64,000 bases of DNA, taken from the NCBI RefSeq assembly GCF_044647545.1, contig NZ_CP172818.1. The stretch is one strand, 5' to 3'. The position numbers were made by a program, and so were the translations under genes. The notes beneath the pieces were generated by a model that worked only from the letters and a program-made list of their open reading frames with translations, searched no databases and was not told the DNA's origin. The stretch is from Escherichia coli (lineage in GTDB: Bacteria; Pseudomonadota; Gammaproteobacteria; Enterobacterales; Enterobacteriaceae). Below, piece by piece: positions 7,628-44,915 of the stretch (its first letter is position 1; each line of letters begins with the position of its first letter).

Positions 7628-7776
7628 ACAAAAACCTTACATTAACGCTGGTTATGTTTAGGGTGGCGTATATTAAAGTTTTTTATGAATTGTGACAGCT
7701 TTTTATCATTAATAGGTAGGATTATTGCGGCACGTTATTTTTACACTGGTTATAAAAGTTGCCGATTGCTGAAGGA

Positions 7777-23213: not shown

Positions 23214-25454
23214 TCAGAAGTGAGTGTTTACGCTCATATACCACGTACGTCCCGGCTCGTTATAGGTATACGCCCCGGCACCTGCGATATAGTTGGCTCC
23301 TGCCAGATCGCCCGTGGTCTGGGCATTACCCGCACGCCACAAACGTTTGTCGAACAGGTTGTCCACGCCGCCGGTCAGACTGACATTCTTCGTCACATCC
23401 CAGGTCGCGCTCAGGCCAACAATGCTGTACGGGCTGATTTCTTTGGTTTCCGGTCCAACCGCTGGCTGACCTTTATAGTTGTACTTCTTCGGCTGCTGCT
23501 TGCCGTACCAGGTGAAGGTTGTTTGCATCGACAAATCTTCCCGTGCCTGCCAGCTCAGCGTTGAGTTCAACGTATACTCCGGGATGATCGACAAACGGTC
23601 GCCCGTGGTTTTGTTTTCACTCTTCAGCATATAAGTGATGTTATTGGTCCACATCACCGTTTCGCTAACCGGTACGTTTAACGATCCTTCCAGACCTTCA
23701 ACCACCGCTTTCGGTACGTTATCCCACTGATAGAGATCGGTGCCGACTGCGTTTTGCCCTACAGCCACATAGCCCGCTTCAATCTTATTGCGATAATCGT
23801 TACGGAACCAGGTGACGCCCGCCAGCCAGCCGTCGCGTTTGAACTCCAGACCAATCTCTTTGTTGATGCTGGTTTCCGCTTTCAGGTCATCATTACCTTG
23901 CAGATAGCAGCCGCCCGCGCTGGCATAGCAACCCTGACCTTTACTGTAGAGAATGTAGTTCGGGTTAGTCTGGTACAGGCTCGGTGCTTTATAGGCGCGG
24001 GCAATGCCCATTTTCAGCGTGAAGTCATCGCCTAAACCTTGCGATATGTTCAGCGCCGGGCTCCAGTTATTGCCAACAATGCTGTGATGATCGAAACGCA
24101 GCCCCGGCGTTACGATGGTGCTGTCAGTCAGCTCCATATTGTTTTCGGCAAATAGCGAGAAAATTTCTGCTTTTGAATACGGGCTACGGTCGGTGGCACT
24201 CACACCATCAATAGCACCGCCAGTATTCGTCCCAGTGAGCGCCTGGGTGTTGGAACTTAAATCCTTCATCCGCTGCTGATTCCACTCCGTACCCAGCGTC
24301 AGCGTCTGGTTAACGAGGAAATCAATCGGCAGGTTAACTTCGCTGTGCAGCATCACGTCATCGAGATCGATATCGACGAAATCCTGTGTCGCTTTTTCGT
24401 TAAATTTCCCTTCGGTACCGCCCGCCAGACCTTCCGGAATACGCGAGTTACGGGTGTGTTCGTACTGCACCCAGTTGCTGGTGGTCACGCCGTTATCCCA
24501 GCCACCGTTCCAGGTCAGCGAGTAGTTCTGGCGATACAGGCGGTTGGTTTCATCGCCATATTTCGAGCGAGTGTAAGCGTCAGAGTTGGTGTTCTGAGTA
24601 TCACCCGCATACAGGTTACCCTGGCGGCTGTAGCCCGCTTCCAGTTCGAGTGATTGCAGAGGCGCGAAGTCCCAGCGCACTACGCCATTAATATCTTTGT
24701 TAATTACCCCTTCGCGCCCGGCTGGTAACGTCGTGGCATACGTTCCGGCACGCGCGGACTGATGGCCCTGGTTGATATCCCACGCGTCAGCCTGGGTTTT
24801 GTCGAGGTTGCCATACAAGCGGAAGCTGAATTCGTCGCCCAGCGGACCGGTCAGGCTGAAGTTGGTGCGTTTGGTGGCACCTTCCTCTTTATGTTCTGGC
24901 GCATTGAAATAAGCATCCCAGGAGCCGTGCCACTCACCGCTGCCTTTTTTGGTAATGATGTTAACCACGCCGCCCGCCGCGCCGTTGCCATAACGCGCAG
25001 CTGCCGGACCACGCAGAACTTCAATACGTTCAATCATTTCAGGTGGCACCCAGGAGGTATCACCACGGGTATCGCGCTCGCCACGCCAGCCCTGACGCAC
25101 TGAGTTACGGCTGCTTACCGGCTTGCCGTCAATCAAAATCAGCGTGTTTTCCGGACCCATGCCGCGAATATCAATCTGGCGGTTATTCCCACGCTGACCA
25201 CTGGTGGAGTTACCGGTCAGGTTAACGCCTGGCATGGTACGGATGATCTCCGACACATCACGGGCAACGGGGTTTTTGCGGATTTCATCTGCGGTGATGG
25301 TCGAAACGCCAGGCGCCTGCAAGTTCTGCTCGGCGGCGGTAACGACAATGGTATCGTCATGTGAAACAGGAGTATCGGTCGGCTCTTGTGCCTGTGCTAC
25401 CCCATAAATCCCCAGATTGACCAACAAGGCCAGGGAATGAATCTTCTTGTTCAT
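23214..25454 (-). CDS. fepA: TonB-dependent ferric enterobactin outer-membrane receptor
   Basis: 746-aa precursor from MNKKIHSLALLVNLGIYGVAQA; TonB box DTIVVTA near the N-terminus; C-terminal …VNTHF terminal Phe. Confidence 0.95.
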   Translation of the reverse strand: MNKKIHSLALLVNLGIYGVAQAQEPTDTPVSHDDTIVVTAAEQNLQAPGVSTITADEIRKNPVARDVSEIIRTMPGVNLTGNSTSGQRGNNRQIDIRGMGPENTLILIDGKPVSSRNSVRQGWRGERDTRGDTSWVPPEMIERIEVLRGPAAARYGNGAAGGVVNIITKKGSGEWHGSWDAYFNAPEHKEEGATKRTNFSLTGPLGDEFSFRLYGNLDKTQADAWDINQGHQSARAGTYATTLPAGREGVINKDINGVVRWDFAPLQSLELEAGYSRQGNLYAGDTQNTNSDAYTRSKYGDETNRLYRQNYSLTWNGGWDNGVTTSNWVQYEHTRNSRIPEGLAGGTEGKFNEKATQDFVDIDLDDVMLHSEVNLPIDFLVNQTLTLGTEWNQQRMKDLSSNTQALTGTNTGGAIDGVSATDRSPYSKAEIFSLFAENNMELTDSTIVTPGLRFDHHSIVGNNWSPALNISQGLGDDFTLKMGIARAYKAPSLYQTNPNYILYSKGQGCYASAGGCYLQGNDDLKAETSINKEIGLEFKRDGWLAGVTWFRNDYRNKIEAGYVAVGQNAVGTDLYQWDNVPKAVVEGLEGSLNVPVSETVMWTNNITYMLKSENKTTGDRLSIIPEYTLNSTLSWQAREDLSMQTTFTWYGKQQPKKYNYKGQPAVGPETKEISPYSIVGLSATWDVTKNVSLTGGVDNLFDKRLWRAGNAQTTGDLAGANYIAGAGAYTYNEPGRTWYMSVNTHF

Positions 25455-25611
25455 TGTTTTATTCCTGCATTTTTGCCACGAATTGCAACTGTCGGGCATG
25501 GTCGTCATCAATACGACGCACCCCGCTACCGCGAAAACCTTTGATCCTGAAAGACACGCAGTGCAGTTGGTTAATTAATGTCCGCGCTTCCCACGGCGCG
25601 CCATTACGCTA

Positions 25612-25676
25612 TTGCAAATGCAAATAGTTATCAATAATATTATCAATATATTTCTGCAATCAATGAAAAATTGCAC
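25612..25676. promoter_or_regulatory. Fur-box cluster in the fepA/fes divergent promoter region
   Basis: AT-rich hexamer array GCAAATGCAAATAGTTATCAATAATATTATCAATAT resembling the GATAAT-type Fur consensus, plus TGCAAT…ATTGCA inverted repeat. Confidence 0.55.
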
Positions 25677-25696
25677 AGTAAACATGGGGTTATGGT

Positions 25697-26899
25697 GTGA
25701 CGGCGTTAAAAGTAGGAAGTGAGAGCTGGTGGCAGTCGAAACATGGCCCGGAATGGCAGCGTCTGAATGACGAAATGTTTGAGGTCACTTTCTGGTGGCG
25801 TGATCCCCAAGGTTCTGAAGAATACTCGACGATAAAGCGCGTATGGGTCTACATCACTGGTGTGACCGATCACCATCAGAACAGCCAGCCCCAGTCGATG
25901 CAGCGAATTGCAGGCACCAACGTCTGGCAGTGGACGACACAGCTCAATGCCAACTGGCGCGGCAGCTACTGCTTTATTCCCACCGAACGCGATGACATTT
26001 TTTCTGCACCATCCCCCGATCGCCTCGAATTACGTGAAGGCTGGCGAAAACTATTACCCCAGGCGATAGCCGATCCGCTGAATCCACAAAGCTGGAAAGG
26101 CGGGCGAGGGCACGCTGTTTCTGCACTCGAAATGCCGCAAGCGCCTCTGCAACCGGGATGGGATTGTCCGCAAGCGCCAGAAACGCCTGCCAAAGAAATT
26201 ATCTGGAAAAGTGAACGGTTGAAAAATTCACGCCGTGTATGGATTTTTATCACCGGCGATGCAACAGCAGAAGAACGCCCGCTGGCAGTTTTGCTTGATG
26301 GTGAATTTTGGGCGCAGAGTATGCCCGTCTGGCCTGCGCTAACTTCGCTGACCCATCGTCGGCAACTTCCTCCCGCCGTGTATGTGTTGATCGATGCTAT
26401 CGACACCACGCACCGCGCCCACGAACTGCCGTGTAATGCGGATTTCTGGCTGGCAGTACAGCAAGAGTTATTACCCCTGGTGAAAGCTATTGCCTCTTTT
26501 AGCGATCGCGCCGATCGCACCGTGGTCGCCGGGCAGAGTTTTGGTGGGCTTTCCGCGCTGTATGCCGGACTGCACTGGCCTGAACGCTTTGGCTGTGTAT
26601 TAAGCCAGTCAGGATCGTACTGGTGGCCGCATCGGGGCGGGCAGCAAGAAGGTGCTTTACTTGAGCAACTTAAAGCTGGTCAAGTTAGCGCCGAAGGTCT
26701 GCGCATTGTGCTGGAAGCGGGTATTCGCGAGCCGATGATCATGCAGGCCAATCAGGCGCTGTATGCGCAATTACACCCCATAAAAGAATCCATTTTCTGG
26801 CGTCAGGTTGACGGCGGACATGATGCGCTTTGTTGGCGCGGTGGCTTGATGCAGGGGCTAATCGACCTCTGGCAACCACTTTTCCATGACAGGAGTTGA
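25697..26899 (+). CDS. fes: Ferric enterobactin esterase
   Basis: ORF from a GTG start (MTALKVGSESWWQSKHGPEWQ…), 400 aa; esterase GQSFGG (GxSxG) motif present. A later start giving about 374 aa is possible. Confidence 0.88.
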   Translation: MTALKVGSESWWQSKHGPEWQRLNDEMFEVTFWWRDPQGSEEYSTIKRVWVYITGVTDHHQNSQPQSMQRIAGTNVWQWTTQLNANWRGSYCFIPTERDDIFSAPSPDRLELREGWRKLLPQAIADPLNPQSWKGGRGHAVSALEMPQAPLQPGWDCPQAPETPAKEIIWKSERLKNSRRVWIFITGDATAEERPLAVLLDGEFWAQSMPVWPALTSLTHRRQLPPAVYVLIDAIDTTHRAHELPCNADFWLAVQQELLPLVKAIASFSDRADRTVVAGQSFGGLSALYAGLHWPERFGCVLSQSGSYWWPHRGGQQEGALLEQLKAGQVSAEGLRIVLEAGIREPMIMQANQALYAQLHPIKESIFWRQVDGGHDALCWRGGLMQGLIDLWQPLFHDRS

Positions 26900-26901
26900 A
26901 T

Positions 26902-27120
26902 ATGGCATTCAGTAATCCCTTCGATGATCCACAGGGAGCGTTTTACATTTTGCGCAATGCGCAGGGGCAATTCAGTCTGTGGCCGCAACAATGCCTCTTA
27001 CCGGCAGGCTGGGACATTGTGTGTCAGCCGCAGTCACAAGAGTCCTGCCAGCAGTGGCTGGAAGTCCACTGGCGTACTCTGACACCGGCGAATTTCACCC
27101 AGTTGCAGGAGGCACAATGA
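26902..27120 (+). CDS. ybdZ: MbtH-like protein, NRPS adenylation-domain partner
   Basis: 72-aa ORF MAFSNPFDDPQGAFYILRNAQGQFSLWPQQ… with the conserved Trp pattern of MbtH-like proteins; its ATG lies 2 bp after the fes stop and its stop overlaps the entF ATG. Confidence 0.85.
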   Translation: MAFSNPFDDPQGAFYILRNAQGQFSLWPQQCLLPAGWDIVCQPQSQESCQQWLEVHWRTLTPANFTQLQEAQ

Positions 27121-30100
27121 GCCAGCATTTACCTTTGGTCGCCGCACAGCCCGGCATCTGGATGGCAGAAAAACTGTCGGATTTACCCTCCGCCTGGAGC
27201 GTGGCGCATTACGTTGAGTTAACCGGAGAGGTTGATGCGCCATTACTGGCCCGCGCGGTGGTTGCCGGATTAGCGCAAGCAGATACGCTGCGGATGCGTT
27301 TTACGGAAGATAACGGCGAAGTCTGGCAATGGGTCGATGATGCGCTGACGTTCGAACTGCCAGAAATTATCGACCTGCGAACCAACATTGATCCGCACGG
27401 TACTGCGCAGGCATTAATGCAGGCGGATTTGCAACAAGATCTGCGCGTCGATAGCGGTAAACCACTGGTCTTTCATCAGTTGATACAGGTGGCGGATAAC
27501 CGCTGGTACTGGTATCAGCGTTATCACCATTTGCTGGTCGATGGGTTTAGTTTCCCGGCCATTACCCGCCAGATCGCCAACATTTACTGCGCATGGCTGC
27601 GTGGCGAACCTACGCCTGCTTCGCCGTTTACGCCTTTCGCTGATGTAGTGGAAGAGTACCAGCAATACCGCGAAAGCGAAGCCTGGCAGCGTGATGCGGC
27701 ATTCTGGGCGGAACAGCGTCGTCAATTGCCGCCGCCCGCGTCACTTTCTCCGGCACCTTTACCGGGGCGCAGCGCCTCGGCAGATATTCTGCGCCTGAAA
27801 CTGGAATTTACCGACGGGGAATTCCGCCAGTTGGCTACGCAACTTTCAGGTGTGCAGCGTACCGATTTAGCCCTTGCGTTGGCAGCCTTGTGGCTGGGGC
27901 GATTGTGCAACCGCATGGACTACGCTGCCGGATTTATCTTTATGCGTCGACTGGGCTCGGCGGCGCTGACGGCTACCGGACCCGTGCTCAACGTTTTGCC
28001 GTTGGGTATTCATATTGCGGCGCAAGAAACGCTGCCGGAACTGGCAACCCGACTGGCGGCTCAACTGAAAAAAATGCGTCGCCATCAACGTTACGATGCC
28101 GAACAAATTGTCCGTGACAGCGGGCGAGCGGCAGGTGATGAACCGCTGTTTGGTCCGGTACTCAATATCAAGGTATTTGATTACCAACTGGATATTCCTG
28201 ATGTTCAGGCGCAAACCCATACCCTGGCTACCGGTCCGGTTAATGACCTTGAGCTGGCCCTGTTCCCGGATGAACACGGTGATTTGAGTATTGAGATCCT
28301 CGCCAATAAACAGCGTTACGATGAGCCAACGTTAATTCAACACGCTGAACGCCTGAAAATGCTGATTGCCCAGTTCGCCGCGGATCCGGCGCTGTTGTGC
28401 GGCGATGTCGATATTATGCTGCCAGGTGAATATGCGCAGCTGGCGCAGATCAACGCCACTCAGGTTGAGATTCCAGAAACCACGCTGAGCGCGCTGGTGG
28501 CAGAACAAGCGGCAAAAACACCGGATGCTCCGGCGCTGGTTGATGCGCGTTACCAGTTCAGCTATCGGGAAATGCGCGAACAGGTGGTGGCGCTGGCGAA
28601 TCTGCTGCGTGAGCGCGGCGTTAAACCAGGCGACAGCGTGGCGGTGGCATTACCGCGCTCGGTCTTTTTGACCCTGGCGCTACATGCGATTGTTGAAGCT
28701 GGTGCGGCCTGGCTACCTCTGGATACCGGCTATCCGGACGATCGCCTGAAAATGATGCTGGAAGATGCGCGTCCATCGCTGTTAATCACCACCGACGATC
28801 AACTGCCGCGCTTTGCCGATGTTCCAGATTTAACCCGCCTTTGCTATAACGCCCCGCTTATACCACAGGGCAGTGCGCCGCTGCAGCTTTCACAACCGCA
28901 CCACACGGCTTATATCATCTTCACCTCCGGTTCCACCGGCAGGCCGAAAGGGGTAATGGTCGGGCAGACGGCTATCGTTAACCGCCTGCTCTGGATGCAA
29001 AACCACTACCCGCTTACAGGCGAAGATGTCGTTGCCCAAAAAACGCCGTGCAGTTTTGATGTCTCGGTGTGGGAGTTTTTCTGGCCGTTTATTGCCGGGG
29101 CTAAACTGGTGATGGCTGAACCGGAAGCGCACCGCGACCCGCTCGCTATGCAGCAATTCTTTGCCGAATATGGTGTAACAACCACGCACTTTGTGCCGTC
29201 GATGCTGGCGGCATTTGTTGCATCGATGACGCCGCAAACCGCTCGTCAGAGTTGCGCGACGTTGAAACAGGTTTTCTGTAGTGGTGAGGCCTTACCGGCT
29301 GATTTATGCCGCGAATGGCAACAGTTAACCGGCGCGCCGTTGCATAATCTGTATGGCCCGACGGAAGCAGCGGTAGATGTCAGCTGGTATCCGGCCTTTG
29401 GCGAGGAACTGGCACAGGTACGCGGCAGCAGTGTGCCGATTGGTTATCCGGTGTGGAATACGGGCCTGCGCATTCTCGATGCGATGATGCATCCGGTGCC
29501 GCCGGGTGTGGCGGGAGATCTCTATCTCACCGGTATTCAACTGGCGCAGGGGTATCTTGGACGACCCGATCTGACAGCCAGCCGCTTTATTGCCGATCCT
29601 TTTGCGCCAGGTGAACGCATGTACCGTACCGGAGATGTTGCCCGCTGGCTGGATAACGGCGCGGTGGAGTATCTCGGGCGTAGTGATGATCAGCTAAAAA
29701 TTCGCGGGCAGCGTATCGAACTGGGCGAAATTGATCGCGTGATGCAGGCGCTGCCGGATGTCGAACAAGCCGTTACCCACGCCTGTGTGATTAACCAGGC
29801 GGCAGCCACTGGTGGTGATGCGCGTCAGTTGGTGGGCTATCTGGTGTCGCAATCAGGTCTGCCGTTGGATACCAGCGCATTACAGGCGCAGCTTCGTGAA
29901 ACATTGCCACCACATATGGTACCGGTGGTTCTGCTGCAACTTCCACAGTTACCACTTAGCGCCAACGGCAAGCTGGATCGCAAAGCCTTACCGTTGCCTG
30001 AACTGAAGGCACAAGCGCCGGGGCGTGCGCCGAAAGCGGGCAGTGAAACGATTATCGCCGCGGCATTCTCGTCGTTGCTGGGTTGTGACGTGCAGGATGC

Positions 30101-30998
30101 CGATGCTGATTTCTTTGCGCTTGGCGGTCATTCGCTACTGGCAATGAAACTGGCAGCGCAGTTAAGTCGGCAGTTTGCCCGTCAGGTGACGCCGGGTCAG
30201 GTGATGGTCGCGTCAACCGTCGCCAAACTGGCAACGATTATTGATGGTGAAGAAGACAGCACCCAGCGCATGGGATTCGAAACCATTCTGCCGTTGCGTG
30301 AAGGTAATGGTCCGACGCTGTTTTGTTTCCATCCGGCATCCGGTTTTGCCTGGCAGTTTAGCGTGCTCTCGCGTTATCTCGATCCACAATGGTCGATTAT
30401 TGGCATCCAGTCGCCACGCCCTCATGGCCCCATGCAGACGGCGGCAAACCTGGATGAAGTCTGCGAAGCGCATCTGGCAACGTTACTTGAGCATCAACCG
30501 CACGGCCCTTATTACCTGCTGGGTTATTCGCTGGGCGGTACGCTGGCGCAGGGTATTGCGGCGCGGCTGCGTGCCCGTGGCGAACAGGTGGCATTTCTTG
30601 GCTTGCTGGATACCTGGCCGCCAGAAACGCAAAACTGGCAGGAAAAAGAGGCTAATGGCCTGGACCCGGAAGTGCTGGCGGAGATTAACCGCGAGCGCGA
30701 GGCCTTCCTGGCGGCACAGCAGGGAAGTACTTCAACGGAGTTGTTTACCACCATTGAAGGCAACTACGCTGATGCTGTGCGCCTGCTGACGACTGCTCAT
30801 AGCGTACCGTTTGAAGGTAAAGCGACGCTGTTTGTTGCTGAACGCACGCTTCAGGAAGGTATGAATCCCGAACGCGCCTGGTCGCCGTGGATTACGGAGC
30901 TGGATATCTATCGTCAGGATTGTGCGCATGTGGATATTATCTCGCCGATGGCGTTTGAAAAAATAGGGCCGATTATTCGTGCGACGCTAAATAAGTAA
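27117..30998 (+). CDS. entF: Enterobactin non-ribosomal peptide synthetase (C-A-PCP-TE, serine-activating)
   Basis: 1293-aa product from MSQHLPLVAAQPGIWMAEKL; adenylation core FTSGSTGRPKG, carrier-domain GGHSL motif, thioesterase GYSLGG motif all visible. Confidence 0.95.
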   Translation: MSQHLPLVAAQPGIWMAEKLSDLPSAWSVAHYVELTGEVDAPLLARAVVAGLAQADTLRMRFTEDNGEVWQWVDDALTFELPEIIDLRTNIDPHGTAQALMQADLQQDLRVDSGKPLVFHQLIQVADNRWYWYQRYHHLLVDGFSFPAITRQIANIYCAWLRGEPTPASPFTPFADVVEEYQQYRESEAWQRDAAFWAEQRRQLPPPASLSPAPLPGRSASADILRLKLEFTDGEFRQLATQLSGVQRTDLALALAALWLGRLCNRMDYAAGFIFMRRLGSAALTATGPVLNVLPLGIHIAAQETLPELATRLAAQLKKMRRHQRYDAEQIVRDSGRAAGDEPLFGPVLNIKVFDYQLDIPDVQAQTHTLATGPVNDLELALFPDEHGDLSIEILANKQRYDEPTLIQHAERLKMLIAQFAADPALLCGDVDIMLPGEYAQLAQINATQVEIPETTLSALVAEQAAKTPDAPALVDARYQFSYREMREQVVALANLLRERGVKPGDSVAVALPRSVFLTLALHAIVEAGAAWLPLDTGYPDDRLKMMLEDARPSLLITTDDQLPRFADVPDLTRLCYNAPLIPQGSAPLQLSQPHHTAYIIFTSGSTGRPKGVMVGQTAIVNRLLWMQNHYPLTGEDVVAQKTPCSFDVSVWEFFWPFIAGAKLVMAEPEAHRDPLAMQQFFAEYGVTTTHFVPSMLAAFVASMTPQTARQSCATLKQVFCSGEALPADLCREWQQLTGAPLHNLYGPTEAAVDVSWYPAFGEELAQVRGSSVPIGYPVWNTGLRILDAMMHPVPPGVAGDLYLTGIQLAQGYLGRPDLTASRFIADPFAPGERMYRTGDVARWLDNGAVEYLGRSDDQLKIRGQRIELGEIDRVMQALPDVEQAVTHACVINQAAATGGDARQLVGYLVSQSGLPLDTSALQAQLRETLPPHMVPVVLLQLPQLPLSANGKLDRKALPLPELKAQAPGRAPKAGSETIIAAAFSSLLGCDVQDADADFFALGGHSLLAMKLAAQLSRQFARQVTPGQVMVASTVAKLATIIDGEEDSTQRMGFETILPLREGNGPTLFCFHPASGFAWQFSVLSRYLDPQWSIIGIQSPRPHGPMQTAANLDEVCEAHLATLLEHQPHGPYYLLGYSLGGTLAQGIAARLRARGEQVAFLGLLDTWPPETQNWQEKEANGLDPEVLAEINREREAFLAAQQGSTSTELFTTIEGNYADAVRLLTTAHSVPFEGKATLFVAERTLQEGMNPERAWSPWITELDIYRQDCAHVDIISPMAFEKIGPIIRATLNK

Positions 30999-31011
30999 AT
31001 TTATATTATCT

Positions 31012-31060
31012 ATAAACCCATAATTACAATAAATGATTATGGGTTTATTATTTATTTAAT
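31012..31060 (+). terminator. AT-rich 13-bp perfect inverted repeat followed by T-rich tract downstream of entF
   Basis: ATAAACCCATAAT … ATTATGGGTTTAT with about an 11-nt loop, then TTATTTATTTAATTTAT; about 14 bp after the entF stop. Confidence 0.5.
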
Positions 31061-31212
31061 TTATCAATTTAACGGATATTTCTCTGAAATAGAGTGAATG
31101 TTGCATTCAGTGGGAGGAATTTACAAACTTCAGCTTCGGATAAATCTCACCAACTGGTAAAGTGGGGGCCGTGGAGATTTACTCTTATTGGACCCATTTC
31201 AGGTTATACCGC

Positions 31213-32346
31213 ATGTCATCACTGAATATTAAACAGGGAAGTGACGCTCATTTTCCCGAGTATCCTCTGGCGTCGCCCAGTAATAATGAAATTGATTTAC
31301 TTAATCTAATCGACGTTTTATGGCGGGCAAAAAAAACGGTCATGGCGGTCGTTTTTGCGTTTGCCTGCACAGGATTGCTGATCTCTTTCATCCTGCCGCA
31401 AAAATGGACCAGCGCGGCGGTTGTCACGCCTCCAGAACCTGTTCAGTGGCAAGAACTGGAGAAAACATTCACTAAGCTTCGTGTGCTGGATCTGGATATC
31501 AAAATTGATCGTACAGAAGTATTTAACCTGTTTATCAAGAAGTTTCAGTCTGTTAGCTTACTAGAAGAGTACCTGCGCTCATCACCTTATGTGATGGACC
31601 AATTAAAAGAGGCGAAAATCGACGAACTGGATTTGCATCGAGCTATCGTCGCATTGAGCGAAAAAATGAAAGCGGTTGATGACAATGCCAGTAAGAAAAA
31701 AGATGAACCGTCACTGTATACCTCCTGGACGCTAAGTTTTACCGCGCCAACCAGTGAAGAGGCGCAGACCGTTTTGAGCGGGTATATCGATTATATCTCT
31801 GCGTTGGTGGTGAAAGAGTCGATAGAAAACGTCCGTAATAAACTGGAGATCAAAACCCAGTTTGAAAAAGAAAAACTGGCTCAGGATCGCATTAAAACGA
31901 AAAATCAACTTGATGCAAACATTCAGCGCCTCAATTATTCACTCGACATTGCCAACGCGGCAGGAATTAAAAAGCCCGTTTACAGTAATGGTCAGGCCGT
32001 TAAAGATGACCCCGATTTCTCTATTTCTCTCGGCGCAGACGGTATTGAACGCAAACTGGAAATTGAAAAAGCGGTTACTGACGTTGCGGAATTGAACGGT
32101 GAATTACGTAATCGTCAGTATCTTGTTGAGCAGCTAACAAAAGCAAATATCAACGATGTGAATTTTACGCCGTTTAAATATCAGTTAAGCCCGTCATTGC
32201 CAGTGAAAAAAGACGGTCCGGGTAAGGCGATTATTGTGATCCTTTCTGCGATGATCGGCGGGATGGTGGCTTGTGGTGGCGTGCTGTTGCGCCATGCGAT
32301 GGCATCCAGAAAACAGGATGCCGTGATGGAAGAGCACTTAGTTTAA
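31213..32346 (+). CDS. fepE: Wzz-type polysaccharide co-polymerase (chain-length regulator) encoded inside the enterobactin cluster
   Basis: Start at MSSLNIKQGSDAHFPEY… (377 aa); two TM helices at the N- and C-terminal ends flanking a coiled-coil-rich periplasmic domain; visibly lower GC than neighbours. Confidence 0.85.
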   Translation: MSSLNIKQGSDAHFPEYPLASPSNNEIDLLNLIDVLWRAKKTVMAVVFAFACTGLLISFILPQKWTSAAVVTPPEPVQWQELEKTFTKLRVLDLDIKIDRTEVFNLFIKKFQSVSLLEEYLRSSPYVMDQLKEAKIDELDLHRAIVALSEKMKAVDDNASKKKDEPSLYTSWTLSFTAPTSEEAQTVLSGYIDYISALVVKESIENVRNKLEIKTQFEKEKLAQDRIKTKNQLDANIQRLNYSLDIANAAGIKKPVYSNGQAVKDDPDFSISLGADGIERKLEIEKAVTDVAELNGELRNRQYLVEQLTKANINDVNFTPFKYQLSPSLPVKKDGPGKAIIVILSAMIGGMVACGGVLLRHAMASRKQDAVMEEHLV

Positions 32347-33158
32347 ATCTTGGCAGTTGAAGGTGCCGTTCGTCCGAGCGGCACCACGAGCGGAGTTCCG
32401 GCTACCGGATCGTCAATAATCATGCAGCGCAGACCATAAATGCGCTCGATCAATTCAGCAGTGACAATCTCCTTCGGCGCTCCCTGAGCAACAATTTTCC
32501 CTTCCCGCAATGCAATCAAATGGCTGGCGTAACGACAGGCCTGATTAAGATCGTGCAGCACCGCCGCCAGGGTATAGCCTTTCTCGCGGTTCAGTTCGCT
32601 TAACAGTTCCAGCAAATCAATCTGATGACTGATATCCAGCCAGGTCGTGGGTTCATCGAGCAGCATAATTGCCGTTTCCTGGGCCAGCACCATTGCTATC
32701 CACGCTCGCTGGCGTTGTCCGCCAGAAAGGGTATCCACGCTTTGATCTGCCAGATGAGTGATTCCCGTGGCCTGCATCGCTTTCGTTACCGCGTCTTCAT
32801 CCTCTTTGCGCCAGCGGGTAAACAGCGGTTGATGCGGGTAACGTCCACGCGCCACCAGCTCCTGCACGGTGATATCGCCCGGCGTGGTAGCATTTTGCGC
32901 CAACAGACCAATCCGGCGTGCAACCTCTTTACTGGCGTAATGTTGAATGTGCTCACCATCCAGCCAGACATGCCCGTGAGCAGGTGTCATCAGGCGGCTT
33001 AAAGTACGCAGTAACGTGGATTTACCGCAGCCATTTGGCCCGATAATTGCCGTGAAGTGACCATCAGGTATTTCTACAGTCAGATTCTCCGCAACGGTAT
33101 ATTTGCCATATCCGAGGGTTAACTGTTCGCCGCGCAAACGGGCTACTGATTCGGTCAT
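32343..33158 (-). CDS. fepC: Ferric enterobactin ABC transporter ATP-binding protein
   Basis: 271 aa from MTESVARLRGEQL; Walker A GPNGCGKST and ABC signature LSGGQRQR present. Confidence 0.92.
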   Translation of the reverse strand: MTESVARLRGEQLTLGYGKYTVAENLTVEIPDGHFTAIIGPNGCGKSTLLRTLSRLMTPAHGHVWLDGEHIQHYASKEVARRIGLLAQNATTPGDITVQELVARGRYPHQPLFTRWRKEDEDAVTKAMQATGITHLADQSVDTLSGGQRQRAWIAMVLAQETAIMLLDEPTTWLDISHQIDLLELLSELNREKGYTLAAVLHDLNQACRYASHLIALREGKIVAQGAPKEIVTAELIERIYGLRCMIIDDPVAGTPLVVPLGRTAPSTAKI

Positions 33159-34147
33159 TTTTTGCGAGACTCCTGAATTAACAAGACGATAAGGTAAATA
33201 CCGCCGAGGCTGACGGTAACGACGCCAACCGGAAGTTGATACGGCATAAACAGTTGTTGGGCGCAGAGATCGGCCGCCAGCAGTAACAACGCCCCGCACA
33301 GCGCCGCCTGGGTCAGCCCCCAGCGAGCGGTGCCGCTAATGCGTCGGGCAATGTGCGGCGCGACTAAAGCAATAAAGGAAATCGGCCCGGCAAGCGCTGT
33401 TGCCGCAGCGGTAAGCACCACTGCAACCAGCATCATTAACAGACGCGAACGTTCGACGCTGACGCCCAGCGCACACGCGGTATCATCGCCCATTTCCAGC
33501 AAGCGCATCCGGCGTACCAGTAAGGCGGCGGCAATTAGCATCAATATAATGATGGGTGCGGAAGGCGAGGTTTTTGCCCACGTCAGGCCGTTGAGCGATC
33601 CGGCATTCCATAAACCCGCTGTTAGCGCCGTTTCTAAAGACGCTTTCAGCAACAGCCAGGTATTAAAGGCCACCAGCATGGCGCGAACGCCGATACCAAT
33701 AATAATCAACCGAAAGGTGTCGATGCCGTTACGCCAGGCGAGCAGCCAGACCAGCAGCGAAGTGACAATGCCGCCCACCATTGCTGCCAGCGCGATAGCC
33801 GTCAGATCCTGACCAAACAGCACCATCGCCACCAGCACGCCGCTCCACGCCCCGGTGTTAAAGCCCATTACGTCAGGGCTACCGAGCGGGTTACGCATCA
33901 GCGACTGAAAAATCGCGCCGCTGACGCCCAGAGCCGCGCCAATTAACAGCGCCATCAGCACGCGTGGTAAACGCCATTCAGTGACCACCATCGTCATACT
34001 GCGCGGCGCATCGCCCATCAGCGCGGCGAATACCTGCGAGGTTTCCAGCGTGACGGTACCGCTGCGTAATCCCCAGATACCTGCAACCACACAGGCGGTA
34101 ATTAGCAGCAAACAGGTGATGATTAATCGGCGAGAGACGTAAATCAT
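33155..34147 (-). CDS. fepG: Ferric enterobactin ABC transporter permease
   Basis: 330-aa polytopic FecCD-family permease; start overlaps the fepD stop by 4 bp and its stop overlaps the fepC start. Confidence 0.92.
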   Translation of the reverse strand: MIYVSRRLIITCLLLITACVVAGIWGLRSGTVTLETSQVFAALMGDAPRSMTMVVTEWRLPRVLMALLIGAALGVSGAIFQSLMRNPLGSPDVMGFNTGAWSGVLVAMVLFGQDLTAIALAAMVGGIVTSLLVWLLAWRNGIDTFRLIIIGIGVRAMLVAFNTWLLLKASLETALTAGLWNAGSLNGLTWAKTSPSAPIIILMLIAAALLVRRMRLLEMGDDTACALGVSVERSRLLMMLVAVVLTAAATALAGPISFIALVAPHIARRISGTARWGLTQAALCGALLLLAADLCAQQLFMPYQLPVGVVTVSLGGIYLIVLLIQESRKK

Positions 34148-35148
34148 GCGCCACCTCGCGTTTTACGTCGCACGAGGAAGATCAGCACCGGTGCGCCAAT
34201 AAAGGCACTGACTACAGAAACGCGTAACTCGCCGGGCACAATCACCCGCCCGATGATATCGGCAAACAGCAGCAGGGCAGGGGTGGCAAGTAGCGTGACG
34301 GGCAGCGACCAGCGATGATCGGCACCTACCAGCCAGCGCGCCATATGCGGCATCATCAGGCCAATAAAGGCAATCGGGCCAACTACCGCCGTCGCACTAC
34401 CACAAAGCACGGTAATCGCCAGCAGACCAATCAACTGTGTGCGCGCCACGCGGCTGCCCAGCGCCGTCGCGGTGTCACTGCCGAGGCTTAAACTGTTCAG
34501 CGCGCGGCTCAGTAATAGCGCGGTTGCTCCGGCGATCAGCACCGGGATCAGCACAACTTTTAAGGTATATAGATTGCGAATATCCAGCGAACCGGCTTGC
34601 CAGAAACGCAGTTGATCGTAGACGTCAGGATTAAGCAGGGCGATGCCGCTGGTCAGCCCTTCCAGCACCGCCGCCAGCGCCACGCCCGCCAGGGTTAAAC
34701 GCACCGGACTTAACTGCCCGCCGCCCTGGCTGCCGGTAAAGGCAACAATCAACGAGGCCACTAGCGCCCCGGCGAAGGCCATCGCCAGTTGTTCCTGCGC
34801 GGATGAGTATCCAAACAGCGCCGCACCCAGCACAATGGCAAAGCTGGCTCCGGCGTTTACGCCAAGCAAGCCGGGGTCGGCAAGTGGGTTTCGGGTGAGG
34901 GTTTGCATCAACGCCCCGGCAAGGCCAAGCGCACCGCCGGCCAGTAAACCGGCAAGGGTGCGCGGCAGTCGTGCGTCGAGCACGATGGTGCAGTCGGCGC
35001 TCTGGCAGGTGCCGGAGAGGGCCTCCAGCACTACGGAAGCGGGGAGTGATTTTGCTCCAATGAGCAGGCTTAATGCCGTCGCGATAATCAGTAATAACAG
35101 CAATCCGGGCACGGCAATGGCGCGTGTCACGGCAACAGAACCAGACAT
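34144..35148 (-). CDS. fepD: Ferric enterobactin ABC transporter permease
   Basis: Start chosen at MSGSVAVTRAIAVPGLLLLL… (about 334 aa); FecCD-family permease. Confidence 0.9.
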   Translation of the reverse strand: MSGSVAVTRAIAVPGLLLLLIIATALSLLIGAKSLPASVVLEALSGTCQSADCTIVLDARLPRTLAGLLAGGALGLAGALMQTLTRNPLADPGLLGVNAGASFAIVLGAALFGYSSAQEQLAMAFAGALVASLIVAFTGSQGGGQLSPVRLTLAGVALAAVLEGLTSGIALLNPDVYDQLRFWQAGSLDIRNLYTLKVVLIPVLIAGATALLLSRALNSLSLGSDTATALGSRVARTQLIGLLAITVLCGSATAVVGPIAFIGLMMPHMARWLVGADHRWSLPVTLLATPALLLFADIIGRVIVPGELRVSVVSAFIGAPVLIFLVRRKTRGGA

Positions 35149-35160
35149 ACGAACTTCCAT

Positions 35161-35185
35161 GATAATGAAATTAATTATCGTTATC
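35161..35185. promoter_or_regulatory. Fur box in the fepD/entS divergent promoter region
   Basis: GATAATGAAATTAATTATCGTTATC is a close match to the Fur consensus GATAATGATAATCATTATC and sits immediately upstream of the fepD start. Confidence 0.6.
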
Positions 35186-35258
35186 GATCTTATTTGGATA
35201 TGTTAGCATGTGCAGCCTAAGAATAGGTATTTAAAATATTTGATGGCAAGGCATTGTA

Positions 35259-36509
35259 ATGAATAAACAATCCTGGCTGCTTAACCTCAGCCTGTTGAAA
35301 ACGCACCCGGCGTTTCGCGCAGTATTCCTCGCTCGTTTTATCTCAATTGTGTCTCTGGGTTTGCTCGGCGTCGCGGTGCCGGTGCAGATCCAGATGATGA
35401 CGCATTCTACCTGGCAGGTGGGGCTTTCGGTGACGCTGACCGGCGGCGCGATGTTTGTTGGCCTGATGGTCGGCGGTGTGCTGGCGGATCGCTATGAGCG
35501 TAAAAAAGTGATTTTGCTGGCGCGCGGCACCTGTGGCATTGGCTTCATTGGACTGTGCCTGAACGCGCTGCTGCCGGAGCCGTCATTGCTGGCAATCTAT
35601 TTACTTGGTTTATGGGATGGTTTTTTCGCATCACTTGGCGTTACGGCGCTACTGGCGGCGACACCTGCACTGGTAGGGCGTGAAAACCTAATGCAGGCCG
35701 GGGCGATCACCATGTTGACTGTGCGTCTGGGATCGGTGATTTCGCCCATGATTGGCGGTTTACTGCTGGCGACCGGAGGCGTAGCCTGGAACTACGGGCT
35801 GGCGGCGGCGGGCACGTTTATTACCTTGCTACCGTTGTTAAGCCTTCCGGCGTTGCCACCACCGCCGCAGCCGCGTGAGCATCCGTTGAAATCATTACTG
35901 GCAGGATTTCGTTTTCTACTCGCCAGCCCGCTGGTGGGAGGGATTGCGTTGCTGGGTGGTTTATTGACGATGGCGAGCGCGGTGCGGGTCCTGTATCCGG
36001 CGCTGGCTGACAACTGGCAGATGTCGGCGGCACAGATTGGTTTTCTCTATGCGGCGATTCCGCTCGGCGCGGCTATTGGCGCGTTAACCAGCGGGAAGCT
36101 GGCACATAGTGCGCGACCAGGGTTATTGATGCTGCTCTCCACGCTGGGATCGTTCCTTGCCATTGGTCTGTTTGGCCTGATGCCGATGTGGATTTTAGGC
36201 GTGGTTTGCCTGGCGCTGTTCGGTTGGTTGAGCGCGGTTAGTTCGTTGCTGCAATATACAATGCTGCAAACGCAAACCCCGGAAGCGATGTTAGGGCGGA
36301 TTAACGGTTTGTGGACGGCGCAAAACGTGACGGGCGATGCCATAGGCGCAGCGCTGCTGGGCGGTTTGGGCGCGATGATGACACCGGTTGCTTCCGCAAG
36401 CGCGAGCGGTTTTGGTTTGTTGATTATCGGCGTGTTGTTATTGCTGGTGCTGGTGGAGTTGCGACGTTTTCGCCAGACGCCGCCGCAGATGACAGCGTCC
36501 GACAGTTAA
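35259..36509 (+). CDS. entS: Enterobactin exporter, MFS transporter
   Basis: 416-aa ORF with 12 predicted TM helices; recognised as EntS (YbdA). Confidence 0.92.
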
Positions 36510-36512
36510 TGC

Positions 36513-37469
36513 TTAAAACAGCGCCTTAAGTCGTTCCAGCACTTGCATGGCGCTGTAGTAATCCAGGCGGAACGTCTCGGTTCCCAGCGCATAAACCTGC
36601 TTGTTTTGTACTGCAGGCAGGTGCGCGAGCAGTGGATTGGCATAAATCGCATCGGCATCTTTCTGATCACCAGCGAACAGGAATAGTGAATCGCCATTTA
36701 ACCCTGCAGCCAGATTTTCTCCACCAAGCTGAATGATGTCATGGCGTTTGCCCTGGCTTTGGCTGGCGTTTAACCCTGCGGGCAATTTCGCCAACGTAAA
36801 GCCGAGTTGTTCCAGCATCTGCCCTTGTGCTGATTCCGGCGTCCAGAGATTGGCACTGTGTGCAGCGGCGGTATAGACAATGGCAGTGACCGGCTGCGGC
36901 GGTAATTTGATTTGCTCTTTCGCCGCCGCCAGTTGCTTATCAAACTGTGCAATCCGCTCTGCCGCTTGTTTCTCATGCCCGGTAATTTCGCCAAGCTGCG
37001 TTAACAGCGACTGCCAGCTTTTGTCGTCGTAATTGATGATTAATGTTGGGGCGATGGTAGAAAGCTGATCGTACAGCGCCAGCGCCGAATCGCCGCCGGT
37101 TGCGCTAATTAAAATCAGATCCGGCATTTGCGCGGCAACGGCTTCGGCGCTCGGTTCGCCGATATAGATCCGTTGCAGTTTGCGTTCTTTCGCCACCTTG
37201 CTCCACTGGCGTAAAAAGCCCTGGTCATCCGCGACGCGGTTATTTGGCGTGGTCGCGCCGCTGGCGATCACCGGAGCATCAATCGCCAGCAGTGAGCCGG
37301 TCAGGGTGACGCTGGTGGAAACTATACGCTGCGGCTGGCTTTCCAGGGTATGAGTGCCCCGGCTGTCAGTAATCTGACGCGGCCAGTCGGCGGCCTGAAC
37401 TGCGACTATTCCTGAAAGCAAAAGTCCTGTTAATAGAAGGGCGTTGCGGTAGAGCGGGGCGAGTCTCAC
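36513..37469 (-). CDS. fepB: Ferric enterobactin periplasmic binding protein
   Basis: 318-aa ORF with signal peptide ([26 protein letters not shown]); siderophore-binding PBP family. Confidence 0.92.
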
Positions 37470-37607
37470 AAATTAGCTTCCTGTTATTAATAGAGTTAAT
37501 GCTTCTCATTTTCATTGTAACCACAAACAGATGCAACCCCGAGTTGCAGATTGCGTTACCTCAAGAGTTGACATAGTGCGCGTTTGCTTTTAGGTTAGCG
37601 ACCGAAA

Positions 37608-37630
37608 ATATAAATGATAATCATTATTAA
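37608..37630. promoter_or_regulatory. Fur box in the fepB/entC divergent promoter region
   Basis: ATAAATGATAATCATTATTAAAG contains GATAATCATTAT, a near-perfect Fur consensus core, about 30 bp upstream of the entC start. Confidence 0.6.
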
Positions 37631-37657
37631 AGCCTTTATCATTTTGTGGAGGATGAT

Positions 37658-38833
37658 ATGGATACGTCACTGGCTGAGGAAGTACAGCAGACCATGGCAA
37701 CACTTGCGCCCAATCGCTTTTTCTTTATGTCGCCGTACCGCAGTTTTACGACGTCAGGATGTTTCGCCCGCTTCGATGAACCGGCTGTGAACGGGGATTC
37801 GCCCGACAGTCCCTTCCAGCAAAAACTCGCCGCGCTGTTTGCCGATGCCAAAGCGCAGGGCATCAAAAATCCGGTGATGGTCGGGGCGATTCCCTTCGAT
37901 CCACGTCAGCCTTCGTCGCTGTATATTCCCGAATCCTGGCAGTCGTTCTCCCGTCAGGAAAAACAAGCTTCCGCACGCCGTTTCACCCGCAGCCAGTCGC
38001 TGAACGTGGTGGAACGTCAGGCCATTCCGGAACAAGCCACGTTTGAACAGATGGTTGCCCGTGCTGCCGCACTTACCGCCACGCCGCAGGTCGACAAAGT
38101 GGTGTTGTCACGGTTGATTGATATCACCACTGACGCCGCCATTGATAGTGGCGTATTGCTGGAACGGTTGATTGCGCAAAACCCGGTTAGTTACAACTTC
38201 CATGTTCCGTTGGCTGATGGTGGCGTTCTGCTGGGGGCCAGCCCGGAACTGCTGCTACGTAAAGACGGCGAGCGTTTTAGCTCCATTCCGTTAGCCGGTT
38301 CCGCGCGTCGTCAGCCGGATGAAGTGCTCGATCGCGAAGCGGGTAATCGTCTGCTGGCGTCAGAAAAAGATCGCCATGAACATGAACTGGTGACTCAGGC
38401 GATGAAAGAGGTACTGCGCGAACGCAGTAGTGAGTTACACGTTCCTTCCTCTCCACAACTGATCACCACGCCGACGCTGTGGCATCTCGCAACGCCCTTT
38501 GAAGGTAAAGCGAATTTGCAAGAAAACGCACTGACTCTGGCCTGTCTGCTGCATCCGACCCCCGCGTTGAGCGGTTTCCCGCATCAGGCCGCGACTCAGG
38601 TTATTGCTGAACTGGAGCCGTTCGACCGCGAACTGTTTGGCGGCATTGTGGGTTGGTGTGACAGCGAAGGTAACGGCGAATGGGTTGTGACCATCCGCTG
38701 CGCGAAGCTGCGGGAAAATCAGGTGCGTCTGTTTGCCGGAGCGGGGATTGTGCCTGCGTCGTCACCGTTGGGTGAGTGGCGCGAAACGGGCGTCAAACTT
38801 TCTACCATGTTGAACGTTTTTGGATTGCATTAA
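37658..38833 (+). CDS. entC: Isochorismate synthase
   Basis: ATG-initiated [16 protein letters not shown]… (391 aa); the track ORF begins at an upstream GTG; chorismate-binding enzyme family. Confidence 0.92.
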
Positions 38834-38842
38834 GGAGCGAGG

Positions 38843-40453
38843 ATGAGCATTCCATTTACCCGCTGGCCGGAAGAGTTTGCCTGTCGCTATCGGGAAAAAG
38901 GCTACTGGCAGGATTTGCCGCTGACCGACATTCTGACGCGACATGCTGCGAGTGACAGCATCGCGGTTATCGACGGCGAGCGGCAGTTGAGTTACCGGGA
39001 GCTGAATCAGGCGGCGGATAACCTCGCGTGTAGTTTGCGCCGTCAGGGCATTAAACCTGGTGAAACCGCGCTGGTACAGCTGGGTAACGTCGCTGAATTG
39101 TATATTACCTTTTTCGCGCTGCTGAAACTGGGCGTTGCGCCGGTGCTGGCGCTGTTCAGCCATCAGCGTAGTGAACTGAACGCCTACGCCAGCCAGATTG
39201 AACCGGCGTTACTGATTGCCGATCGCCAACATGCGCTGTTTAGCGGGGATGATTTCCTCAACACATTTGTTGCAGGGCATTCTTCCATTCGCGTGGTGCA
39301 ACTTCACAACGACAGCGGTGAGCATAACTTGCAGGATGCGATTAACCATCCGGCTGAGGATTTTACTGCCACGCCATCTCCTGCTGATGAAGTGGCCTAT
39401 TTCCAGCTTTCCGGCGGAACCACCGGCACACCGAAACTCATCCCACGCACTCATAATGACTATTACTACAGCGTGCGTCGTAGCGTCGAGATTTGTCAGT
39501 TCACACAACAGACGCGCTACCTGTGCGCGATCCCGGCGGCTCATAACTACGCCATGAGTTCACCGGGATCGTTGGGGGTATTTCTCGCTGGCGGCACTGT
39601 CGTTCTGGCTGCCGACCCCAGCGCCACGCTTTGCTTCCCATTGATTGAAAAACATCAGGTGAACGTCACCGCGCTGGTGCCACCAGCAGTCAGCCTGTGG
39701 TTACAAGCGCTGACCGAAGGTGAAAGCCGGACGCAGCTTGCTTCCCTGAAACTGTTACAGGTCGGCGGCGCCCGTCTTTCTGCCACGCTGGCAGCGCGTA
39801 TTCCCGTAGAGATTGGCTGCCAGTTACAGCAGGTGTTCGGTATGGCGGAAGGGCTGGTGAACTACACCCGACTTGATGATAGCGCGGAGAAAATTATCCA
39901 TACCCAGGGTTACCCAATGTGTCCGGACGATGAAGTGTGGGTTGCCGATGCCGAAGGAAATCCACTGCCGCAAGGGGAAGTTGGACGCCTGATGACCCGC
40001 GGTCCGTACACCTTCCGTGGCTATTACAAAAGCCCGCAGCACAATGCCAGCGCCTTTGATGCCAACGGTTTTTACTGTTCCGGCGATCTGATCTCTATTG
40101 ATCCAGAGGGTTACATCACTGTGCAGGGGCGCGAGAAAGATCAGATCAACCGTGGCGGCGAGAAGATCGCTGCCGAAGAGATCGAAAACCTGCTGCTGCG
40201 CCATCCGGCGGTGATCTACGCCGCACTGGTGAGCATGGAAGATGAGCTGATGGGCGAAAAAAGCTGTGCTTATCTGGTGGTAAAAGAGCCGCTGCGCGCG
40301 GTGCAGGTGCGTCGTTTCCTGCGTGAACAGGGTATTGCCGAATTTAAATTACCGGATCGCGTGGAGTGTGTGGATTCACTTCCGCTGACGGCGGTCGGGA
40401 AAGTCGATAAAAAACAATTACGTCAGTGGCTGGCGTCACGCGCATCAGCCTGA
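38843..40453 (+). CDS. entE: 2,3-dihydroxybenzoate-AMP ligase
   Basis: 536-aa adenylating enzyme; [12 protein letters not shown]-binding motif visible. Confidence 0.95.
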
Positions 40454-44772: not shown

Positions 44773-44777
44773 AGTCA

Positions 44778-44870
44778 GAGTGAGGGGGGATGTTGGCGAA
44801 TGTTGGCATGGTGCCGAGGGTTCCCCCTCACCCTAACCCTCTCTCCTGTGGGGCGAGGGGACTGACCGAG
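44778..44870. repeat. GC-rich structured inverted-repeat element in the cstA-ybdD spacer
   Basis: GTGAGGGGGGA (about 44780-44790) pairs with TCCCCCTCAC (about 44822-44831) across a loop containing the tandem ATGTTGGC…ATGTTGGC, followed by a CCCTAACCCTCTCTCC…GGGGCGAGGGGA tract. Confidence 0.4.
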
Positions 44871-44915
44871 CGCGTTGATAGCACCCTCTCAGCAACCTGT
44901 TTACCGGAGGTTTAG

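Follow-up and report, generated by a model that had tools for sequence, protein, structure and literature searches.

Four Fur operators, and not three shared ones, serve the three divergent intergenic regions of the enterobactin cluster in this Escherichia coli strain, with a single cluster of sites in each of the fepA/fes and fepD/entS gaps and two separate clusters in the fepB/entC gap. The window, which is the whole 64-kb stretch of the E. coli chromosome that was analysed, holds the enterobactin cluster, its genes having been identified through 100% identity to the ent clusters of annotated E. coli genomes, and the genes that flank the operators are those of enterobactin synthesis and transport. 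The sites are present, lie far above chance expectation, are identical to DNA that has been footprinted in K-12, apart from the outer flank at fepB, and are conserved. With a probability of about 0.96 they represent the classical operators through which Fe2+-Fur controls the enterobactin regulon of E. coli, and nothing was found that contradicts this explanation. Fur binding and iron-dependent regulation are presumed by analogy with the K-12 literature, while the exact promoter hexamers and start sites are predictions from the sequence.

Sites were scored with a symmetric 19-bp position weight matrix (PWM) built from 15 K-12 Fur sites which are experimentally supported or well known and which all lie outside the enterobactin cluster. 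The matrix was rebuilt from the K-12 loci at the coordinates in Table 4 of Chen 2007, with gene starts serving to correct the offset between genome versions.2 and.3 (+777, +1976, +1977, +1978). The training sites were registered on centres from Chen's model, which had seen the ent sites, a mild circularity that concerns the alignment only. The three highest-scoring of the approximately 64,000 positions in the window fall in the three divergent intergenic regions, namely 37613-37631 at entC (24.9 bits), 35164-35182 at fepD/entS (19.7 bits) and 25617-25635 at fepA/fes (18.4 bits), and these values lie within the range of 18.0-28.9 bits obtained for the training sites by leave-one-out scoring. 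The chance expectation for a site of at least 18 bits is 0.023 against an iid background and 0.06 in dinucleotide shuffles, and when each intergenic region was shuffled alone with its dinucleotide composition kept, the observed score was reached in 0, 1 and 0 of 1000 shuffles. The control set of intergenic regions was restricted to 7770-54481 because the annotated genome from which coordinates were taken matches the window exactly across the ent cluster only, diverging at window positions 1-7783 and differing by small indels past ~54.5 kb. The other 19 intergenic regions reach a maximum of 5.4 bits, and the entD/fepA, entF/fepE and entH/cstA gaps lack a Fur-like site by PWM (at most 5.4 bits), so that no fourth regulated gap is seen among them.

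An earlier sequence-only reading of this DNA had proposed that all three divergent control regions carry Fur operators, fitting the known iron regulation of the cluster, and had named a PWM scan as a check; the general claim is borne out, also by that scan. The two strings that it quoted are present where expected. The only copy of GATAATGAAATTAATTATC lies at 35161-35179, 13 bp before the annotated start of fepD in the fepD/entS gap, which is 110 bp long, and none of 100 shuffled sequences gave a match; GATAATCATTAT also has a single occurrence, at 37616-37627, approximately 30 bp upstream of entC. Position 25612, where that reading began, falls within the fepA/fes site. Its description of the sites as close matches to the Fur consensus needs qualification at fepA/fes, where it fails by mismatch count and holds by PWM and conservation. 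Counting mismatches to the classical 19-mer consensus was dropped as a measure: the fepA/fes site has 6, equal to many hits in coding regions, and is separable from background only via the matrix and conservation data.

All four operators are composed of overlapping sites at 6-bp (and 3-bp) offsets, in line with the description of footprinted Fur sites as clusters of overlapping sites spaced 3 or 6 bp apart (Chen 2007). In mapped coordinates the best-site centres at 25626, 35173 and 37622 fall on exactly the same bases as the strongest sites listed in Table 4 of Chen 2007. DNase I footprints have been reported in K-12 for fepA-fes, fepB, entC and fepD-entS, together with a gel shift for fepD-entS, and their coordinates are used here second-hand from Table 3 of the same paper (Chen 2007). 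According to ChIP and expression data, the ent and fep genes belong to the Fur core regulon of nine strains of E. coli, and in K-12 they are among the operons under strong repression. Expression of the flanking genes has been reported to depend on iron and Fur in K-12 and in eight further strains of the species. Phylogenetic footprinting of 80 related loci from approximately 25 genera finds a site of at least 18.3 bits in every evaluable copy of the three regions (60/60, 55/55 and 67/67), and the conserved blocks, with operator cores of the form AATGATAAT/ATTATC, coincide with the published footprints. The features are collected in the table.

Table. Fur operators and predicted promoter elements in the three divergent regions (window coordinates; matrix scores in bits)
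Feature	Coordinates	Strand	Elements	Basis
fepA/fes Fur operator	25617-25647	none	three 19-bp sites staggered by 6 bp, centred at 25626 (18.4), 25632 (2.3) and 25638 (9.1)	PWM
Predicted fes promoter	25612-25640	+	-35 TTGCAA 25612-25617, 17-nt spacer, -10 TAATAT 25635-25640	sequence and cross-genus invariance
Predicted fepA promoters, two candidates	25606-25663	-	candidate 1: -35 TTGATT 25663-25658, -10 TATTAT 25639-25634; candidate 2: -35 TTGATA 25634-25629, -10 TAGCGT 25611-25606	candidate 1: consensus scan; candidate 2: conserved block
fepD/entS Fur operator	35158-35188	none	centres 35167 (5.8), 35173 (19.7) and 35179 (13.8); contains GATAATGAAATTAATTATC	PWM; K-12 identity
Shared fepD/entS core promoter, putative hexamers	35175-35228	both directions	entS (rightward): -35 TTATCG 35175-35180 inside the Fur cluster, -10 TATGTT 35199-35204; fepD (leftward): extended -10 TGcTAACAT 35208-35200, -35 at 35228-35223	published fragment and conservation
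fepB Fur operator	37492-37516	none	two sites 6 bp apart, centres 37501 (11.3) and 37507 (11.1)	PWM, conservation, K-12 footprint
Predicted fepB promoter	37509-37537	-	-35 TTGCAT 37537-37532, 17-nt spacer, -10 GAAAAT 37514-37509 (inside the fepB operator); predicted start near 37502	conserved GATGCAAGC and CATTTTC blocks
Predicted entC promoter	37568-37596	+	-35 TTGACA 37568-37573, 17-nt spacer, -10 TAGGTT 37591-37596; predicted start near 37603	cross-genus conservation
entC Fur operator	37607-37643	none	centres 37616 (14.6), 37619 (6.4), 37622 (24.9) and 37634 (10.2); contains GATAATCATTAT	PWM; K-12 identity

The overlap of operators with promoters is read from predicted hexamers, conservation and one published promoter fragment. 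A consensus promoter scan gave hits at about the level of shuffled sequence and missed the conserved entC TTGACA, and was replaced by conservation. At fepA/fes the K-12 DNase I footprint maps to 25605-25652 (Chen 2007, Table 3), and cross-genus identity is 0.96 inside this block as opposed to 0.44 in the remainder of the gap. The predicted fes promoter lies entirely within the conserved operator block, and the -10 hexamer predicted for the first fepA candidate would overlap the fes -10 on the opposite strand at 25634-25640. The predicted starts lie near 25647 for fes and near 25627 and 25599 for fepA. Two tandem fepA promoters were reportedly described by Hunt in 1994. The operator and promoter block is identical to that of K-12 fepA-fes (Hunt, Pettis and McIntosh 1994; Escolar et al. 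1998), from which the strain differs by only two SNPs further into the fepA leader and thus in nothing of substance; the best site has the same centre as in Chen 2007 and scores 18.4 bits here compared with 18.7 there.

The fepD/entS footprint maps to 35130-35198 and reaches into the start of the fepD coding sequence, and binding is also seen by gel shift (Chen 2007, Tables 3 and 4). The operator is conserved across genera, although most other genera carry it as GATAGTAATTATC (23.2 bits) where E. coli has GAAATTAATTATC (19.7 bits). A fragment spanning 35175-35229 has been used as a bidirectional fepD/entS promoter, in which the -35 hexamers were mutated at exactly the positions given in the table and transcription starts lie 10-23 bp apart (PMC12825309); the 'entS up' and 'fepD down' labels of the supplement seem to run against the orientation of these genes in the window, and the geometry of the fragment alone was used. 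The putative -10 hexamers on the two strands overlap at 35199-35205, and ATGTTAGCATGTGC within this core promoter is near-invariant across genera. Predicted starts lie near 35211 for entS and near 35193 for fepD. Over the 171 bp compared, the region is 100% identical to K-12 fepDGC-entS (ybdA), with the same single Fur cluster beside a shared core promoter and no difference within E. coli (Christoffersen et al. 2001; Lavrrar et al. 2002). In K-12 this cluster has been described as not overlapping a strong predicted promoter, with microarrays showing weak repression there (Chen 2007).

Under iron-sufficient conditions Fur dimers would load onto these clusters, in which 19-bp sites overlap at 6-bp steps, and since the clusters lie on or adjoin sigma-70 promoter elements RNA polymerase would be excluded; when iron is scarce Fur would leave and six units, fepA-entD, fes-ybdZ-entF, fepDGC, entS, fepB and entCEBAH, would fire. 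At fepA/fes both directions may be repressed because one cluster would cover the overlapping opposite-strand -10 elements as well as the fes -35. The single fepD/entS cluster may likewise act in both directions because it would cover the entS -35 and the first ~35 nucleotides of the fepD transcript and would adjoin the -10 core that both promoters share. The suggestion that one operator is able to control both divergent transcripts therefore stands for these two regions, each of which has one cluster on putative back-to-back promoter elements that overlap, and it does not stand for fepB/entC, where there are two clusters and the literature records two footprints. The box quoted for this third region belongs to the entC promoter only, and fepB has its own conserved operator which the sequence-only reading missed.

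The fepB/entC gap would thus comprise two independent promoter-operator units placed back to back, with the fepB operator over the fepB -10 and start site and the stronger entC operator just downstream of the entC -10. The K-12 entC footprint spans 37604-37652, corresponding to about +1 to +49 of the transcript as predicted, and the entC site scores 23.1 bits in Chen 2007, centred at the same base as here. Within the operator AAATGATAAT is invariant across genera, and in the promoter GTTGACA is invariant and TTAGGTTA nearly so in 23 genera. The fepB operator has a K-12 footprint of its own that maps to 37489-37519 (Chen 2007), and a conserved block, GTTAATGCTTCTCATTTTCA, lies 31-37 bp from the fepB start across genera. 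Its two scores are similar to those of the weakest footprinted K-12 sites (tonB 11.5 and fur 12.3 bits; Chen 2007, Table 3). A score of ~11 bits is expected one to two times per 64 kb by chance, and the case for this operator in the present strain is made by its position, its conservation and a footprint obtained in K-12 on a sequence that differs in part. The centres of the fepB and entC operators are approximately 115-121 bp apart, each operator lying over its own predicted promoter, and the predicted starts are separated by ~101 bp. This agrees with a distance of ~103 bp between the fepB and entC starts which is said to have been found by Brickman in 1990. The arrangement with two separate operators is that of K-12 fepB-entC (Brickman, Ozenberger and McIntosh 1990), and a single SNP is the only difference from K-12 across the entC promoter, the entC operator and the fepB operator core.

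A single shared operator could still be imagined in every region including this one, with the entC box alone also repressing fepB, given that the entC site far outscores the others in the region (24.9 bits) and that the fepB-side site is modest here (~11 bits) and falls to 2-5 bits in several genera. This is very unlikely: the centre of the entC box is ~120 bp from the predicted fepB start and hence beyond simple occlusion, the predicted fepB -10 is overlain by a separate, strongly conserved block that holds two Fur-like sites at a 6-bp offset, and K-12 shows two distinct footprints in the region. It is more improbable still, to the point of being barely credible, that the matches arise simply from AT-rich promoter DNA whose conservation reflects promoter function or another protein such as H-NS or CRP. 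The gaps are 57-70% AT and the sites overlap predicted -10 and -35 hexamers, which confounds the two signals, and additional regulatory components were reportedly suggested at fepA-fes by Hunt in 1994. However, composition-preserving shuffles reach the observed scores in at most 1 of 1000 cases, and equally AT-rich gaps do not exceed 5.4 bits (entF/fepE at 68% AT and citR/dsbG at 70% AT). Also in favour of Fur operators are the footprints, gel shift and ChIP on identical DNA, together with the K-12 reports that Fur binds in vitro and that repression is lost in a fur mutant.

A 186-bp palindromic (hairpin) repeat that is found in the K-12 fepB leader is absent from this strain. In K-12 the repeat is inserted at about +4 of the fepB transcript, and the fepB/entC gap measures 374 bp there and 188 bp here. 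Of 5426 complete E. coli genomes, 2755 carry the repeat. The short form without it, shared with E. albertii and the majority of the other genera, is therefore probably ancestral. One end of the repeat takes the place of the outermost 6 bp of the fepB Fur site, which reads ATCAATAATG... in K-12 (18.6 bits) and AGAGTTAATG... in the window (11.3 bits). The insertion lengthens the fepB 5' UTR from ~33 nucleotides, the leader predicted for this strain, to ~219 nucleotides, adds a hairpin of approximately -91 kcal/mol and increases the predicted strength of the Fur site by ~7 bits. An Rfam scan of the K-12 insert returned only sub-threshold look-alikes of microRNA hairpins, which were rejected.

The enterobactin operators helped to define the Fur box. 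They are real, functional according to the K-12 literature and already known, the K-12 footprints having been published between 1990 and 2002, so their confirmation adds nothing new beyond showing that they are readable from raw sequence; what is useful is the corrected architecture of four operators in three regions and the observation on the end of the fepB repeat. The K-12 fepB operator as it has been studied consists in part of the end of a repeat element which half of E. coli genomes, and this strain, lack. The product of fepB is the periplasmic enterobactin-binding protein. It is a tentative and rather doubtful possibility that the fepB-leader repeat, present in some genomes and absent from others, constitutes a natural regulatory variant, in which case the two halves of E. 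coli could differ in the tightness or speed of iron repression of fepB, or in its translation.

The enterobactin cluster carries Fur operators in all three of its divergent promoter regions, fepA/fes, fepD/entS and fepB/entC. These are type examples of Fur operators, and the finding is thus already known. In vivo, ChIP-exo combined with expression data places the ent and fep genes in the Fur core regulon across nine E. coli strains (PMC10164565), and in K-12 their operons count among those that are strongly repressed (PMC4676285). The sequence studied experimentally is nearly that of the window, since the fepD/entS gap of K-12 MG1655 is 100% identical, the fepA/fes gap shows no difference within the operator, and the fepB/entC gap differs by one SNP between the fepB operator core and entC. 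The published DNase I footprints (Chen 2007, PMC2189734) were mapped to window coordinates and are listed with gene coordinates, which are annotation transferred from a matching E. coli genome, and with promoter hexamers and starts predicted from the sequence and its conservation.

Features of the enterobactin cluster in window coordinates
Feature	Position	Strand, size or score	Remark
fepA	23214-25454	-	
fepA/fes divergent gap	25455-25696	242 bp	
fepA-fes DNase I footprint (K-12)	25605-25652		Chen 2007 Table 3
Predicted fes promoter	-35 TTGCAA 25612-25617; -10 TAATAT 25635-25640		sequence and conservation
fepA/fes site	25617-25635	18.4 bits	rank 3 in window
Predicted fepA -10 TATTAT	25639-25634	strand opposite fes	
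fes	25697-26899	+	
ybdZ, entF, fepE	between fes and fepC	+	
fepC, fepG	between fepE and fepD	-	
fepD	34144-35148	-	
fepD-entS DNase I footprint (K-12)	35130-35198		Chen 2007 Table 3
fepD/entS divergent gap	35149-35258	110 bp	
fepD/entS site	35164-35182	19.7 bits	rank 2 in window
Predicted entS -35	35175-35180		within Fur cluster 35158-35188
Predicted fepD/entS shared core	35199-35205		opposite-strand -10 hexamers
entS	35259-36509	+	
fepB	36513-37469	-	
fepB/entC divergent gap	37470-37657	188 bp	
fepB DNase I footprint (K-12)	37489-37519		Chen 2007 Table 3
Predicted fepB promoter	-35 TTGCAT 37537-37532; -10 GAAAAT 37514-37509		under operator 37492-37516
Predicted entC promoter	-35 TTGACA 37568-37573; -10 TAGGTT 37591-37596		followed by operator 37607-37643
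entC DNase I footprint (K-12)	37604-37652		Chen 2007 Table 3
entC-side site	37613-37631	24.9 bits	rank 1 in window
entC	37658-38833	+	

The fepA/fes site departs from the classical 19-mer consensus at 6 positions, as do many coding-region sequences; a mismatch count thus discriminates poorly and was dropped in favour of a matrix blind to the ent sites. The symmetric 19-bp matrix (consensus AATGATAATCATTATCATT) was derived from 15 Fur sites of K-12, none of them in the ent cluster (yoeA, gpmA, ryhB, sodA, fecI, fecA, fhuF, nohA, cir, fhuA, exbB, sufA, bfd, mntH and fiu), using centre coordinates from Chen et al. 2007 (PMC2189734, Table 4) that were each compared with the annotated gene start; it is blind in sequence, with the register of the training sites set by an earlier model to which the ent sites were known. 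The sequence-only reading had proposed Fur-like operators in all three divergent regions, checkable by such a scan, and is borne out: the best three of about 64,000 positions in the window fall in these gaps. Both strings it quoted are real, GATAATGAAATTAATTATC occurring once at 35161-35179 and GATAATCATTAT once at 37616-37627. The leave-one-out scores of the training sites range from 18.0 to 28.9 bits, and matches of at least 18 bits are expected by chance 0.023 times (iid background) or 0.06 times (200 dinucleotide shuffles). When each gap was shuffled with its AT-richness retained, 0, 1 and 0 of 1000 trials came up to the score of the real sequence, and the window's remaining 19 intergenic regions, gaps of 68-70% AT among them, all score at most 5.4 bits. 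The centres at 25626, 35173 and 37622 are the same bases as the strongest mapped sites of Chen 2007 (PMC2189734) at fepA-fes (18.7 bits), fepD-entS (19.4) and entC (23.1). The fourth-best match, CATAAAAATGATTATCATG in the ybdN coding sequence (48427-48445, 15.3 bits; about 0.13-0.23 as strong expected by chance), is absent from the Fur studies consulted; some intragenic sites are bound by Fur in vitro (Chen 2007, PMC2189734). A Fur-like site in the entE coding sequence (39449-39467, 12.1 bits) is about as strong as 64 kb would yield by chance.

Each of the four operators consists of clustered sites at a 6-bp offset, a pattern read by Chen 2007 (PMC2189734) as Fur dimers on different helix faces. 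At fepA/fes a single operator would serve both directions because the predicted promoter elements of both genes all lie inside the Fur cluster. A single operator would likewise serve fepD, whose transcription start is predicted near 35193, and entS; a 2026 study takes exactly 35175-35229 as the bidirectional promoter of fepD/entS, its starts separated by 10-23 bp (PMC12825309). That study's supplementary table has 'entS up' and 'fepD down' as labels, apparently for the -35 hexamers of the opposite gene, a reversal relative to chromosomal orientation that may be a mere naming convention. Besides its annotated ATG at 35148, fepD has another in frame 12 bp upstream, at 35160, which directly abuts the Fur box; the operator is thus part of, or immediately adjacent to, the translation initiation region. 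The earlier claim that one operator can control both transcripts thus holds for these two regions but fails for fepB/entC, where it overlooked the separate fepB operator. Here each gene has its own operator at a predicted promoter of its own; some 101 bp separate the predicted starts, and across genera the operator centres are spaced by 115-121 bp.

Within E. coli, window 25400-37800 is 100% identical to several complete chromosomes and is matched over at least 80% of its length by 5412 of 5426 genomes. One of the genomes identical over the cluster, FDAARGOS_497, does not align to window 1-7783 and has rhs, vgrG and type VI secretion genes in its place, so this stretch appears to be a variable region adjoining cusS. 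Across genera, 80 syntenic loci were collected by a scan for FepD relatives (Escherichia, Citrobacter, Salmonella, Klebsiella, Raoultella, Enterobacter, Kluyvera, Kosakonia, Buttiauxella and others) and divergent gene starts were placed by tblastn. No evaluable gap lacks a site scoring 18.3 bits or more (fepA/fes 60/60, fepD/entS 55/55, fepB/entC 67/67). In the alignments, ATACGCTATTGCAAATGCAAATAGTTATCAATAATATTATCAAT (25605-25648) of fepA/fes is almost invariant between unalignable flanks (identity 0.96 versus 0.44), fepD/entS keeps TGATAATGA.A.TAATTATCGTTATC and ATGTTAGCATGTGC, and fepB/entC keeps GTTAATGCTTCTCATTTTCA, GATGCAAGC, GTTGACA, TTAGGTTA and AAATGATAAT. Lineage-specific inserts of about 120-170 bp also occur in these control regions in other genera, always clear of the operator and promoter blocks. 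In the fepB/entC gap of Salmonella enterica subsp. arizonae (locus L034) the insert separates the entC Fur box from the entC ribosome-binding site; others lie in the fepD/entS gap of loci L035, L039, L045, L052, L054 and L025, the Raoultella and Enterobacter examples being downstream of the entS promoter block.

The three control regions depart from the K-12 reference only at fepB, where K-12 has 186 extra bases between operator and start codon, a GC-rich palindromic repeat (15542-15727 of the K-12 locus, L002) that is absent here at the junction 37496-37499. In K-12 it sits near +4 of the fepB transcript, whose leader thereby gains a predicted hairpin of about -91 kcal/mol. The insert, which may resemble the box C repeat, is dispersed at a median of 14 places per genome; of 5426 complete E. 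coli genomes, 2755 have the long form. For the interval between fepB and entC, PMC5100583 lists this insert as an 'HPG1' G-quadruplex/hairpin motif (HPGQ17/18). A second family member, 75% identical to the K-12 insert over 105 bp, lies in the cstA/ybdD gap (44776-44877) and is given as an HPG1 member in the same source. The short form is also found in E. albertii and most other genera and is therefore probably ancestral. In K-12 the right end of the insert forms the outermost 6 bp of the fepB Fur site, which lifts the matrix score of this site from 11.3 to 18.6 bits.
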